A stretch of 44,678 nt of DNA from an uncultured bacterium (GTDB lineage: Bacteria; Muiribacteriota; Ozemobacteria; Ozemobacterales; Ozemobacteraceae). Below, in pieces: positions 12,514 to 17,227 of the stretch. The stretch spans positions 1-44,678 of the forward strand of contig CAYYUI010000040.1 of the NCBI GenBank assembly GCA_964474705.1, written 5' to 3'. Both the position numbers and the translations under genes were made by a program. The notes beneath the pieces were generated by a model. That model did no database searches. It had not been told where the DNA came from and saw only the letters and a program-made list of their open reading frames with translations. Each line of letters opens with the position of its first letter. The first letter of the stretch is position 1.

Positions 12514-15375
12514 TCACGCAGTGAGTCGCTGGTATAAATCAAACAAGAAGGCGACGCGGTCGGCTTCGGTTTTGAATGTGGTTTTGCCGTAGGCGGCATC
12601 CACTGCTTTGTCGAGATTCTGATGTGCCTTTACCAGTTCAGGGGGCATTGATCTAGGATCGTAGAGGTCAGCAAGAGAACTGTCTGGGTATTTGGTGCGG
12701 GCATCTAATACTTGCTGGGCCGCCAATTCAACTGCTTTCTGTTGTTTTTTGTCTGGGTTTAAAGGCCACGGGAATGTATTGTAGGTCAGCTTGGCCGAAT
12801 ATTGATAGTCGCTTTTCAATCTACCAGAAGTTGTGCGCATCCATGCCATGTGCATTGTGCTGGTAATTATGCCAAAATCATAAAGACTTGCACCGGGAAT
12901 GGTTTGCAACTTGTCGCCTGCAATGTGGGTATGTGGCAGATAGCCGATTGGGATGTAATTTCGGTTTTCTGATGAAACCCTTGGCAATGCGAGATAGTAG
13001 CCTGATTGAGGTTGTCTGATTTCAGCAAACAATGCTGGTTTATTAGAATCTCTTTGCGTGGCTTCTTTAGTGCTCGCACTTCTCATGGCTTTGACAGCTT
13101 CAACACGCTTCATCACATGATGCATTTCTCTTAACTTGTTTGGCGAGCAACCTACGAGCCAAAGGCAAAATCGTGGAATGTTGTTGATGAATTCATCACC
13201 CATTGAAAAAGGTCTTACAAGCTCTTCAGCGGCGGGTTCAATTTTTAATAACTCATTTTTTTCGTCTTCTGATAGCAAAAGATTGCCGCCATCGGTAGGC
13301 TTGTTGCCGTTTACCATTGCTGGAACTTTGCATAATGCCTGCGACCGTGCCAGAACAACAGCGTTGGGTGCATCGAGCAGGTATGGGTTAATGTTCTTTG
13401 CGATTGTGCTGTGTGGTTCGCCTTTAATGTCGTCATAGACAAATAGGGTCTTTTCTGGGGTTTCGGCCAGACCGAAGCCGATAATAACAACATGCACGGC
13501 CGCCTTTCCGCGTGCTTCGCTGCTCCAGCTGAATGTTCGGTGGGCAAAATAAATTTTCAGTCCTGCTTTTATAAGTGGCGGCCATAATATAGAGACCTGT
13601 TCACCCTGGGTGATGCTGTTTGTCGAGACGAATGCGACGCGTGTGTTTTTGTTTTTTACCAGGTAATCTGTGGCCAGATAATACCAGGCAGCGACAAAAT
13701 CAAGGCTTCTGTATAACTTCACTGGTTCGAGGCTGGCAGCAGCGTTGAATACCTTGTGTAAGTCGGTGTCCTGCTGGTCGGAACGGTAATTTTTGCCGAT
13801 GAACGGCGGATTTCCCATGATGTAGTCAAAACTTACCCGTTCTGATTCGGCTGGGGCCTGGCCTTTGTGCACTTTAAACGACTTTGTTTGAACATTGATA
13901 GTATTGTAAGTTTGCTTTGGATCATTTACCAGATAGATATTTGTATGTTGAGCTGTTGCATCAATGGTGCTGATGGGAATGAGAAGTTCTTGCCAGTCGA
14001 TCTGCAGGGCGTTGGCGCATACGATGGTGCCGCCGCCGCGCAATGGAATACGTGCAAAATAAAGGCCGAACTCTTCAGAAACCTGCATGTTCATCTGGTG
14101 GTCAACCAGCCACAGTGCAACCTGGGCAATCTGAGCCGGGAATTCTTCAATTTCGATGCCGTAGAACTGGTCAACATCAAGCTTTATCAGTGTCTGCACG
14201 TCCAGAATCTGTTGCTGTTTGTCATACATGGCGCGAAGAATTTCTAGTTCCAGCAGGCGCAATTCACGGTAGGCAATGACCAGAAAGTTGCCACAACCGC
14301 AAGCCGGGTCGAGAAATTTCAACGAGCGCAGCTTTTGATGAAACTCAGCCAGCTTGTTTTTATTACCCTTAAATTTGGTGAATTCTTCCCAGAGAACATC
14401 GAGAAACAGCGGCTTGATCAGCTTCAAAATGTTCCTTTCACTGGTATAGTGGGCACCAAGATTTCGTCTGGCGGTTTTATCCATGATTGACTGAAACAAC
14501 GAACCGAAGATAGCCGGTGAAATACGGCTCCAGTCGAGAGCGCAACAGTCGAGCAGAGTCTGGCGCATTTTGCTGTCAAAACTGGCGTTCGGCAGGATTT
14601 CCTCAAACAGCTTACCATTAACGTATGGAAAGGCGGCCAGCTGTTCATCGAGATTTCTGAGACGCCTGCTTTCTGGCGTGTTCAAAACCTGAAAAAGTGC
14701 GGCAATATGGTAAGCCAGATCTGAGCCGTCTTCATTCGTGCGTTCTTCAACATAGTTCTGAAAGGTCTGGCGCTCAAAAATGCCGGTGTCTTCGGCAAAT
14801 AGACAGAAAAGAAGGCGCACCAGATACAGCTCAAGCTGATGACCGTCGTAGCCGATTTCCTTGAGCTGGTCATGCAATCTCCCCATGTTTTCGGCGGCCC
14901 TGATATTAACCGGGTCTTCTTCGCGGATCTTGTGTTTCTGGTATCCGGCCACAAAGCCGAAAAGCCTGATGTTTTTGTGCAGGTCTCTGAGGTCGAAGTC
15001 GTGCTGCTCGTTTTCTTCCAGGTCATAGAGGCGGAACCTGGCAAAGTCAGAAACCAGAATGTATTTGGGCAGCTCGCGCTCCAGTATGCCGGGGAAATAA
15101 TCGAGAGCTTGAGTGTAGGCTCGATCAAGGTTTTTGCCGCGCGATTTGTGCTCGACCAGCAGAATTCCTTTCCAGAACAGGTCAATGAACCCTTGCTTTT
15201 CTCCGAGTTTCTTTACTGGTTCTTCAAATGACGCAACCCGCTTGCGGGTAATACCAAAGATATTGAAGAAGCCATCCCAGAATGATTTGGCTTCGGCATC
15301 TTCTGATGTTTCGGTTTCCCACTCTTTTGAAAAGGCTATGGCGCGGCTTTTTATCTCGTTCCAGCTCAAAGGCAT
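12514..15375 (-). CDS. MmeI-family Type IIL restriction-modification enzyme (fused endonuclease, N6-adenine methyltransferase and target-recognition domain)
   Basis: N-terminus MPLSWNEIKSRAIAFSKEWE; DLFW..EHKSRG nuclease motif; SAM motif I FLDPACGCGNFL; motif IV GNPPF; C-terminus LKAHQNLDKAVD..AFLFDLYQRLT, all characteristic of MmeI-like enzymes. Confidence 0.85.
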   Translation of the reverse strand: MPLSWNEIKSRAIAFSKEWETETSEDAEAKSFWDGFFNIFGITRKRVASFEEPVKKLGEKQGFIDLFWKGILLVEHKSRGKNLDRAYTQALDYFPGILERELPKYILVSDFARFRLYDLEENEQHDFDLRDLHKNIRLFGFVAGYQKHKIREEDPVNIRAAENMGRLHDQLKEIGYDGHQLELYLVRLLFCLFAEDTGIFERQTFQNYVEERTNEDGSDLAYHIAALFQVLNTPESRRLRNLDEQLAAFPYVNGKLFEEILPNASFDSKMRQTLLDCCALDWSRISPAIFGSLFQSIMDKTARRNLGAHYTSERNILKLIKPLFLDVLWEEFTKFKGNKNKLAEFHQKLRSLKFLDPACGCGNFLVIAYRELRLLELEILRAMYDKQQQILDVQTLIKLDVDQFYGIEIEEFPAQIAQVALWLVDHQMNMQVSEEFGLYFARIPLRGGGTIVCANALQIDWQELLIPISTIDATAQHTNIYLVNDPKQTYNTINVQTKSFKVHKGQAPAESERVSFDYIMGNPPFIGKNYRSDQQDTDLHKVFNAAASLEPVKLYRSLDFVAAWYYLATDYLVKNKNTRVAFVSTNSITQGEQVSILWPPLIKAGLKIYFAHRTFSWSSEARGKAAVHVVIIGFGLAETPEKTLFVYDDIKGEPHSTIAKNINPYLLDAPNAVVLARSQALCKVPAMVNGNKPTDGGNLLLSEDEKNELLKIEPAAEELVRPFSMGDEFINNIPRFCLWLVGCSPNKLREMHHVMKRVEAVKAMRSASTKEATQRDSNKPALFAEIRQPQSGYYLALPRVSSENRNYIPIGYLPHTHIAGDKLQTIPGASLYDFGIITSTMHMAWMRTTSGRLKSDYQYSAKLTYNTFPWPLNPDKKQQKAVELAAQQVLDARTKYPDSSLADLYDPRSMPPELVKAHQNLDKAVDAAYGKTTFKTEADRVAFLFDLYQRLTA

Positions 15376-15745
15376 GATTGTTACTCTCTGTTCAGGTTGA
15401 TTTTTGTTATGACTCAGGCTTTCGTCCGGCAAAGTCCATTAAATCACAATCAGATCTATCATGCAATTTTTGCTCAGATCGAACAACTCTACGAGTGAAG
15501 CATGGTCGATTCGCCTGATTTGGAAGCTTATAGTGGCCGCCTGGTAAAGGTTAAAAAGCGGCAGCAAAGTCTTCCTGATATAAATTCTGCGAACCATTGT
15601 TTGCTCAAATTAGGAACGCATTGCATACCATTTTGAAGACGGCTTGCTGTTTTAATTCACTGAATCTCGGCCTTTCCAGTTTGCTTCTTTCAAAGATTGT
15701 CGTCGGGTGGTTGAATTGTAATATTGCAGGTGATATCATAAATAT

Positions 15746-15991
15746 ATGGGAACATTTGAAAAACTCCTGGAAAAAATGCGCAGTAATCCTCGTGGAGATT
15801 GGACTATGGAAAATCTTCTGACGATTGCCAGGCGGATGAACATTGAGGTTCGCAACAGTGACGGCAGTCACCATGTTTTTTCTTTTCCAGGGCTGGATGA
15901 GGATGTAACGGTACCGTATAAGCGGCCGATCAAACCGGTTTATATCAAAAAGTTTCTTGCGCTGGTTGATGCGGTTAAGGAGGTTGTATGA
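15746..15991 (+). CDS. hicA: HicA-family mRNA interferase toxin
   Basis: GSHHVF ... VTVPYKRPIKPVYIKKFL motif of HicA/YcfA; ATGA overlap with the downstream gene. Confidence 0.7.
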   Translation: MGTFEKLLEKMRSNPRGDWTMENLLTIARRMNIEVRNSDGSHHVFSFPGLDEDVTVPYKRPIKPVYIKKFLALVDAVKEVV

Positions 15992-16380
15992 AGAAGGTTG
16001 CAAAAGTTAAGCCGCCCTTTGCTTTTGATGAATACACAAGGGTTCTGAGCCGTATTGCGGAAGATGACGGCGGCGGGTTTCTGATTACTTTTCCGGATCT
16101 GCCGGGCTGCATGTCTGATGGAACCACTGAGGAAGAGGCCCTCGAGAATGGAAGAGATGCTTTTGTTTCGTGGGTTTCAGCGCGGATGGATCAGGGAAAG
16201 AATATTCCGGAACCAAAAGCGAAGCCGATGGACTATGTTGCGGCAGATGTTTCCGGACGATTTCTGGCGCGGATGCCGAAGTATATTCATGCTCGTCTGG
16301 TTAAGAGGGCAGAACGTGAGGGTGTGAGCGTGAATGCCCTGGTTCTGTCTTTTATCGCTTCCGGGCTTGGGCAGAGCTGA
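15988..16380 (+). CDS. hicB: HicB-family antitoxin (RNase-H-like fold N-domain plus RHH DNA-binding C-domain)
   Basis: LITFPDLPGCMSDGTTEEEALENGRDA is HicB/UPF0150-like; the C-terminus is a ribbon-helix-helix. Confidence 0.75.
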   Translation: MKKVAKVKPPFAFDEYTRVLSRIAEDDGGGFLITFPDLPGCMSDGTTEEEALENGRDAFVSWVSARMDQGKNIPEPKAKPMDYVAADVSGRFLARMPKYIHARLVKRAEREGVSVNALVLSFIASGLGQS

Positions 16381-16434
16381 AACTCTCATTAACCAATAAT
16401 TTCCGGCACGCTACGTAGCGCGGCGCAAAAGATT

Positions 16435-16719
16435 TCAGGCAACCTTGCTTAGAGTCAGGTTGAATCCTGATCTCATGGCCAGAATAATAAGCATTTCCAG
16501 ACTGAATTTTTCCCATTTTCCACGAACCAGATCAGAAATTCTCGACTGGCTAACCTGCAGAATTTCGGCAGCTTCAGCCTGAGTAAGACCCTGATCACTG
16601 ATCCACTTTCTTACCTCTGCCATCAAATCAGCCCGCATTCTAAGAATTGCAGCATCTTCACTCGAATAGCCGAGGTCGAGAAAAACATTTCCAGATGATT
16701 CATGAATTTCGTTTTTCAT
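16435..16719 (-). CDS. higA: HigA-like XRE-family HTH antitoxin
   Basis: HTH LTQAEAAEILQVSQSRISDLVRG; its ATG overlaps the TAA stop of the upstream toxin reading frame by 1 nt. Confidence 0.75.
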   Translation of the reverse strand: MKNEIHESSGNVFLDLGYSSEDAAILRMRADLMAEVRKWISDQGLTQAEAAEILQVSQSRISDLVRGKWEKFSLEMLIILAMRSGFNLTLSKVA

Positions 16720-17041
16720 TATTTTACCCCAATGAGAGCCAGTCTTTTGCGAGCAATTTCGATATCCTGCAGAGAGGTTTTCTGTGTTTTTTTCTGAAAA
16801 GCGTGCAAAACATAAACAGCATCCAAAACTTTGGCTACGTAGATAACCCGCCATTCCCCAAGGATATGAATCCGGATTTCATTTACTCCAGAACCGATTG
16901 TCTTCAGGGTTTCCAGTCGCCTGGCTCAAACCCATTTTGAATAGCTCGAAGCTCGAAACCGGCAGCACGCCGCGCTTCCTCCGGGAAATCGCGCAATTCA
17001 TTCAGACTCGGCCCAACAAATCTTAATGGCTTGGTAGTCAC
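16719..17041 (-). pseudogene. higB: HigB/Gp49-like (RelE/ParE superfamily, COG4679-type) toxin, disrupted by a frameshift
   Basis: Two adjacent frames give KPLRFVGPSLNELRDFPEEARRAAGFELRAIQNGFEPGDWKP and LKTIGSGVNEIRIHILGEWRVIYVA..VYVLHAFQKKTQKT, which join if one C is added to the CCC run (plus-strand GGG at 16907-16909); putative GTG start at 17041. Confidence 0.6.
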
Positions 17042-17046
17042 AATAC

Positions 17047-17076
17047 AATTATATATGTTTTTATATAATTCTCAAG
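17047..17076 (-). promoter_or_regulatory. promoter (TTGAGA-16-TATAAT) with a perfect 9 bp inverted-repeat operator AATTATATA-N6-TATATAATT for the higBA locus
   Basis: Palindrome arms at 17047-17055 and 17062-17070 overlap the -10 element; typical TA autoregulation site. Confidence 0.4.
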
Positions 17077-17227
17077 CAAAAATTTGCTTCATCCGAATCC
17101 TGCATACTTTTATAACGAAAGGACTTGAAAAGCGTGGACATGAGTTTCAAGGCAGATAGATGCCACTCAAATCTGCCTGGAGGAAACCATGTTCATACTG
17201 TGCCGGCGTGGCAGACTGGTAGCAGGT

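Follow-up and report, generated by a model that had tools for sequence, protein, structure and literature searches.

The question raised by this locus is whether two short reading frames lying directly ahead of an antitoxin gene are the remains of a single toxin gene and, if so, whether the break between them is a mutation, an error of assembly or a site of recoding. The locus was analyzed within the window, i.e. the whole 44.7-kb stretch of DNA under study, and against related contigs, genomes and structures.

The split toxin gene and its antitoxin

A minus-strand toxin in two pieces, with an intact XRE antitoxin behind it, had been described in the first-pass annotation, and this arrangement was confirmed in the sequence at the coordinates listed here.

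16904 to 17041, minus strand: higB 5' piece, from GTG at 17041 to a premature TGA stop at 16906-16904, 45 codons, sequence VTTKPLRFVGPSLNELRDFPEEARRAAGFELRAIQNGFEPGDWKP
16719 to 16907, minus strand: higB 3' piece, 62 codons plus TAA at 16721-16719, running from LKTIGSG to LIGVK, i.e. LKTIGSGVNEIRIH...LALIGVK
16435 to 16719, minus strand: higA, intact 94-aa XRE/HTH_37 antitoxin, its ATG overlapping the higB TAA by one base
16389 to 17085, minus strand: higBA cassette (promoter, higB, higA and a short 3' tail), 697 bp, 93.8% identical to positions 3957-4653 of contig L084

Several details of the earlier description required revision. The first piece, given as 47 aa, is 45 aa long and aligns with residues 1-45 of intact 107-aa relatives, and the second piece, assigned earlier to the +1 frame, is read in frame -1 (= +2) with respect to it. 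The joined protein is of the Gp49/HigB type as proposed, and restoring one base gives a HigB of 107 aa in place of the approximately 106 aa suggested. The overlap claimed between the toxin TAA and the antitoxin ATG was found as described, with one base in common at 16719 (TAATG, 16721-16717). An exact-protein look-up of the 45-aa stub returned no gene on record.

The restored HigB matched the Pfam Gp49 profile (PF05973) in a single stretch running over the junction (residues 15-101, E=8e-25; profile positions 2-89 of 90), scoring 87.1 bits against a gathering cutoff of 23.9. The 3' piece alone also matched Gp49 (E=8e-18), while the 45-aa 5' piece alone gave no match in Pfam, as is expected for a short fragment. 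Because the restored protein matches Gp49 as one unit and the 3' piece does so by itself, the two halves can be regarded as parts of one domain, and the possibility that homologues would reveal two unrelated halves was not borne out. At E<=1e-10 there were 7352 homologues of HigB, of which the 120 best all measured 103-110 aa; nine intact 107-aa proteins were 93-100% identical to the joined sequence over its full length. In an alignment of 27 homologues, D42, W43 and K44 were invariant, P45 was at least 90% conserved and residue 46 was mostly Met, placing the junction within a near-invariant DWKPM block. A reading of the pieces as independent short ORFs, at a site that never held a toxin gene, is contradicted by the unbroken Gp49 match, by the nine intact full-length relatives and by the position of the junction in this block, and has practically no probability.

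The reference-genome scan did not recover the species of the window, its best match having 77% amino-acid identity. The toxin frame was intact in 78 of 80 reference-genome loci, a higA-like gene lay directly 3' of the toxin in 74 of the 80, and close relatives shared the arrangement of a 107-aa toxin and a 94-aa antitoxin. Against the NCBIfam model TIGR02683 (upstrm_HI1419 RelE/ParE toxin), the restored protein scored 27.4 bits, below the curated cutoff of 62.85. An uninterrupted ORF over the full domain is absent from the window, where a premature TGA follows codon 45, and the higB of the window is best classed as a pseudogene of the Gp49-like HigB toxins, without the status of a functional member.

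The antitoxin behind it is intact, as had been noted. Its 94-aa ORF matched Pfam HTH_37 (PF13744) at residues 19-90 (E=2e-17, 63 bits versus a cutoff of 27), and the nearest solved protein was 2A6C (E=7e-11). The score against NCBIfam TIGR02607 (HigA family addiction module antitoxin) was 19.8 bits, under the cutoff of 47.7. The protein would thus be HigA-like by its gene context and HTH type while lying outside the canonical HigA equivalog, and toxin and antitoxin together can be assigned to a Gp49/HTH_37 branch of HigBA-like systems. The HigA protein is identical in contig L001, and that of the other relatives is also 94 aa long. A 139-aa ORF at 16854-16435 on the minus strand was considered as an extended HigA and rejected: it is present in both alleles and overlaps the higB frame. 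It runs through the higB 3' piece and was called as a gene only on contig L002, which carries the broken allele.

In contigs L084-L087, whose proteins are 96% identical, DNA similarity to the window extends from approximately 45 nt upstream of the GTG to approximately 45 nt past higA. There the cassette sits in a different toxin-antitoxin island (PIN, PemK/ParD, Uma2), with flanks unrelated to those of the window. Since the shared block, 17085-16389, spans both promoter and operator, these travel with the cassette.

The missing base and its origin

The break was located by base-by-base alignments to three contigs carrying intact alleles, L001, L088 and L084.

16906 to 17007, minus strand: region of the deletion, the feature meant being the deletion point between 16907 and 16906

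The intact alleles read CCC ATG AAG here, the window reads CCC TGA AG, and L001 has AAACCC-A-TGAAG at the break; the corresponding sequences are CCCATGAAG for the intact allele and CCCTGAAG for the deletion allele. Because all three intact close relatives read CCC-A-TGAAG, the lost base is an A and not a fourth C, namely the lone A that is the first base of the Met46 codon, with the length of the C-run unchanged. The deletion itself makes the TGA stop. The first-pass annotation had placed the frameshift within the C-run and held that four C residues in the reads would mean an intact gene. The plus-strand GGG at 16907-16909 is present as it described, and this CCC has the same length in both alleles, so that a search for a fourth C would address the wrong base. 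Alignment to intact homologues, also proposed there, upheld the one-base frameshift and located the missing base at Met46.

Contig L001 (1,981 bp, run SRR8925812) was found through an exact look-up of the HigA protein. It is 99.4% identical to window positions 17245-15266, and its toxin gene is intact, encoding 107 aa. Contig L088 (NCBI contig JAHZTK010024643.1) is 98.6% identical to the window and carries CCCATG. It was considered as a second broken allele, since its gene call covered no more than a 62-aa Gp49 piece, and was rejected: the gene is intact from its GTG, and the public annotation had started the toxin at the internal Met46, giving 62 aa. The toxins of L001, L088 and L084-L087 all lie in a single frame. 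The deletion recurs in contig L002 (1,196 bp, run SRR8925823), which is 100% identical to window positions 17272-16077, deletion included. A scan of metagenome contigs with a junction pattern for either allele gave 0 matches.

Positions 17224-17221 also set the deletion haplotype apart from L001 and L088, and position 16982 sets it apart from L001; because of these further differences it represents a distinct strain. The metagenome assembly GCA_020047475.1 (L003/L089, L088/L092) breaks inside higA. In this assembly a 99.84%-identical contig ends at window position 16688 and a 98.6%-identical one at 16393, which suggests that two co-existing strains meet at the assembly break in higA.

Taken together, the evidence makes it very probable that the break is a genuine, recent, strain-level inactivating deletion, and much likelier that it is this than a sequencing error. 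We infer a biological origin rather than a read error because L002 repeats the deletion, because the deletion is linked to other haplotype-specific variants and because the other genes of the window are unbroken. With regard to the last point, the large ORFs of the 44.7 kb other than higB match Pfam profiles essentially end to end (five MmeI domains in the 972-aa ORF, ABC_membrane 1-274/274, Aldedh 17-455/461, DUF819 2-378/379), and the ORFs of 972, 831, 639, 617 and 606 aa are among those free of frameshifts. An artefact of sequencing or assembly would mean that the organism truly has CCCATGAAG and an intact toxin, one base having been dropped from the consensus. Such an error is consistent with the fact that, within higB, a single synonymous change is all that separates the window from L001 besides the missing base; the absence of any other amino-acid change is expected of a recent mutation and equally of an error. 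Moreover, the window is a whole GenBank contig of 44,678 bp, and this contig and L002, a Logan contig, may go back to one run, i.e. two assemblies of one read set, so that the agreement between them, at 100% over 1196 bp in a separately built assembly from a public run, has to be read with this in mind. The site, on the other hand, is a lone A between C and T rather than a homopolymer, which led to the homopolymer error offered in the first-pass annotation being rejected, and an artefact of any kind is considered rather unlikely.

The slippery site named there as a further explanation fared no better, and of its three candidates the genuine mutation is the one favoured. Programmed recoding would require -1 ribosomal or transcriptional slippage at AAA-CCC-TGA, by which some full-length toxin would be made from an attenuated gene. 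A stop codon directly behind a short C-run can favour P-site slippage in some systems. Here, the stop does follow such a run immediately, and the downstream frame is fully open as far as the natural stop. Nevertheless, no in-phase X XXY YYZ heptamer exists at the break (TGG AAA CCC TGA), and the sole heptamer in the gene, T TTC CCG approximately 80 nt upstream, runs into a stop codon. The tRNA-Pro on CCC would need to re-pair on ACC, and a 3-nt run is far too short for transcriptional slippage. Furthermore, the shift is missing from the three closest relatives and 78 of the 80 reference-genome loci are single-frame. The two-frame layout is accordingly a derived deletion and no conserved feature; recoding is very unlikely, and programmed frameshifting can be taken as essentially excluded on these sequence grounds. 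The allele might be attenuated if, with UGA in the A site, the P-site tRNA-Pro now and then slipped back by one base on A-AAC-CCU, or if read-through changed the frame; a little full-length HigB with Leu46 in place of Met46 would then be made. This too is given very little weight, and is entertained at all because the downstream frame is perfectly open and undecayed; if true, it would describe a naturally dialled-down toxin kept in the population beside the full-strength allele.

Promoter, presumed operator and start codon

Upstream of the toxin, the promoter and the palindrome reported in the first-pass annotation both proved to be real. They comprise the following elements.

17070 to 17075, minus strand: -35 hexamer TTGAGA (promoter scan), a TTG-type -35 being equally placed in relatives
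17048 to 17053, minus strand: -10 hexamer TATAAT (promoter scan), with the GTG start 6 nt downstream
17047 to 17070, no strand assigned: perfect inverted repeat AATTATATA-N6-TATATAATT, 9+9 bp, spanning the promoter spacer and the -10; presumed HigA operator

The promoter TTGAGA-16-TATAAT (17075..17048) matched 11 of 12 consensus positions in the scan. The inverted repeat occurs once in the window even when 2 mismatches are allowed, and 0 of 100 dinucleotide-preserving shuffles matched it. It can be observed that such repeats recur in the family: arms of at least 7 bp were found upstream in 35% of 74 family loci versus 4% of shuffles, and arms of at least 9 bp in 8% of the 74 upstream regions versus 0.3%. 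Where the half-sites vary, both arms change together, e.g. TTATACAA/TTGTATAA and ATATCCA/TGGATAT. This symmetry is as expected of a site bound by a dimer, presumably one of HigA.

The same layout was found in relatives from the Bacteroidota, Thermodesulfobacteriota, Nitrospirota, Chloroflexota and Proteobacteria. In distant relatives it consists of a TTG-type -35, an inverted repeat (e.g. TATATAA-N4-TTATATA) overlapping TATAAT, and then the start codon. Of 74 related loci, 37 contained an exact TATAAT, and 35 of these 37 had an in-frame start 5-12 nt downstream of it, with a mode of 6. The GTG start of the window lies 6 nt past the -10 and has no Shine-Dalgarno sequence. Because the start codon comes approximately 6 nt after the -10, a leaderless mRNA is predicted, and the spacing suggests that transcription would start at or near the GTG. 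Starts this close behind the -10 and without a Shine-Dalgarno sequence recur across the family, and for this reason at least one public annotation, that of L088, missed the true start of the toxin. A scan of metagenome contigs with a pattern for promoter, operator and start gave 0 matches.

Consequences, known relatives and surroundings

In its undamaged form the cassette would be an approximately 0.7-kb, self-contained and autoregulated type II toxin-antitoxin unit with the toxin gene first. The toxin is a Gp49-type HigB, presumably a RelE-fold, ribosome-dependent mRNA endonuclease when intact, and the antitoxin an HTH_37/XRE-type HigA. A sigma-70-type promoter, TTGAGA-16-TATAAT, would drive transcription of an mRNA that is probably leaderless, with the GTG 6 nt past the -10. 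The HigA dimer, alone or together with HigB, presumably binds the A/T-rich inverted repeat over the -10 and spacer and so switches the operon off. Deletion of the A of Met46 brings an immediate stop and a 45-aa product, with higA itself untouched and uncoupled in translation from higB.

The loss to the toxin can be judged from a model of the restored HigB built from the family alignment, of moderate confidence (pLDDT 72.5, pTM 0.66). Its topology is beta-alpha-alpha-beta4-alpha (strands 47-50, 53-60, 63-72 and 75-84; helices 21-35 and 91-103), and this combination of an antiparallel sheet of four strands, helices packed against it and a long helix at the C-terminus corresponds to a RelE-type fold. 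Residues F82, K84 and K85 are invariant in the family alignment; in the window, the out-of-frame 3' piece alone encodes them. In the alignment with Streptococcus pneumoniae HigB, K84 falls on the catalytic Lys K92 and F82 on F90, the roles of these residues being taken from PMC9098466; K92 in turn corresponds to K95 of Mycobacterium tuberculosis HigB1 and R81 of RelE (PMC9098466). The stop precedes the entire beta-sheet, the C-terminal helix and the region of the catalytic lysine, so that the 45-aa stub is expected, by homology, to be a dead toxin with no RNase activity.

The age of this damage is reflected in the codon differences. Relative to L084, higB carries 16 synonymous and 4 non-synonymous differences and higA 9 and 3; relative to L088, higB has four synonymous changes and one non-synonymous. 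Since synonymous differences outnumber non-synonymous ones, both genes appear to have been under purifying selection, the toxin until recently. The broken allele shows no further damage, and for this reason the deletion is considered very recent. With regard to the antitoxin, ribosomes now stop 185 nt ahead of higA, implying that the translational coupling through TAATG is lost, and HigA would have to initiate by itself. A GGGG run lies 9-12 nt upstream of the higA ATG. Any HigA that is made would act as a repressor of its own promoter and might neutralise related incoming HigB toxins.

Comparison with known systems places the restored toxin in familiar company. The Foldseek matches of the model comprised M. 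tuberculosis HigB1, S. pneumoniae HigB (6AF3/6AF4), Vibrio cholerae HigB2 and RelE proteins. The best of them was M. tuberculosis HigB1/HigB-TAC (Rv1955; 7AWK, 7NBU), with a TM of 0.78 and an rmsd of 2.8 A for 7AWK; 7NBU is the ribosome-bound form with cspA mRNA. HigB1 has the Gp49-like RelE fold and long C-terminal helix that are here present in the model, and it cleaves mRNA on the ribosome by means of a catalytic lysine after the last strand (PMC9098466). Leaderless transcripts are common for M. tuberculosis toxin-antitoxin modules (PMC3898074, PMC8485053), and those described in PMC3898074 match the architecture proposed here. HigB1 nevertheless differs from the HigB of the window, with a sequence identity of approximately 21% and a relationship that HMMER did not detect. 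Rv1955 is also part of a toxin-antitoxin-chaperone system of three components, the chaperone being SecB-like; the cassette of the window consists of two genes, and its toxin is interrupted.

S. pneumoniae HigBA (6AF3/6AF4) is the only solved structure that was detected by sequence (E=3.4e-4), its HigB being the sole match in an HMMER search of PDB sequences at E<=10, and it is also a top fold match. It resembles the window in its toxin-first order and HTH antitoxin, and the two toxins have in common the motif LH-F-K(K/R)TQKT followed by the C-terminal helix. They differ in that identity is 18-26%, the last ~40 residues alone align, and the S. pneumoniae toxin is longer, at ~120 aa. In V. cholerae HigBA2 (8A0X, 5JA8) the toxin is likewise Gp49-like, and its partner, an HTH antitoxin, binds to a palindromic operator within the promoter that drives it. 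HigB2 was found by fold search (E=4e-3) as a weaker match, with a TM of ~0.5 and no match at the sequence level.

The cassette is flanked by slyX/corA on one side and by a hicA-like/hicB pair on the other, and adjoins an MmeI-family restriction-modification gene. The higBA genes, the hicAB pair and the MmeI-family gene together form a small defence and addiction islet. Its other members, and a further gene of the window, are as follows.

12514 to 15432, minus strand: MmeI-family type IIL restriction-modification enzyme, full length, 972 aa, five MmeI domains
15746 to 16380, plus strand: second toxin-antitoxin pair, HicA-like/HicB-like, converging on higA
18600 to 21095, plus strand: vault-protein-like gene, 831 aa, with MVP_shoulder (E=1.5e-29) and Vault_3

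The order of the MmeI-family gene beside two toxin-antitoxin pairs is kept in the sister contig L003. The HicA-like protein (81 aa) has a weak Pfam match (E=0.0015), under the gathering score, and its gene overlaps that of the HicB-like antitoxin (130 aa, E=2e-12). The genes hicB and higA converge with 54 nt between their ends, and the palindrome CGCTACGTAGCG at 16409-16420, within this gap, may be a bidirectional terminator hairpin; no T-run stands behind it. The 831-aa protein is a bacterial homologue of the eukaryotic major vault protein; its homologues at E<=1e-20 number 6678 and are spread over many bacterial phyla. Among named matches, the best come from Candidatus Riflebacteria (79-84% identity), a group to which the host is related. 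Elsewhere in the window a repeat of approximately 200 bp occurs in two inverted copies, at ~2344-2546 and ~25709-25911, with 89% identity over 203 bp. Each copy contains a perfect hairpin, CGTTTTGCC-N5-GGCAAAACG, in an apparent intergenic gap. The repeat matched no Rfam family or tRNA; candidates for its nature are a MITE/REP-like element and a small RNA not described before. An exact look-up of CorA found nothing on record, and a 29-kb contig carrying a SlyX relative (L093) was discarded as a comparison, as its DNA is not similar to that of the window and it lacks higBA at that site.

The higB of the window is thus an ordinary pseudogene of recent origin within a toxin-antitoxin family that has very many members, and the system is of a known kind. 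Chromosomal toxin-antitoxin loci with a frameshifted toxin beside an intact antitoxin and promoter are commonly reported. The window is in the same state as these decaying type II loci; here, the intact and broken alleles stand side by side in near-identical strains, and since both are visible there, decay has apparently been caught very early. The locus is correctly labelled as an intact higA preceded by a higB pseudogene that lacks one base at Met46; two small ORFs or a 139-aa regulator would be wrong. Beyond this correct annotation the importance of the finding is small. The coexistence of intact and broken alleles in an uncultured Riflebacteria-like population nonetheless offers a clean natural example of the first step of toxin-antitoxin decay. 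For the large Gp49/HTH_37 family, the -35, the inverted repeat over a TATAAT -10 and the start approximately 6 nt later make up a compact signature across phyla, which could help annotators to choose the start codon, often non-ATG and without a ribosome-binding site.
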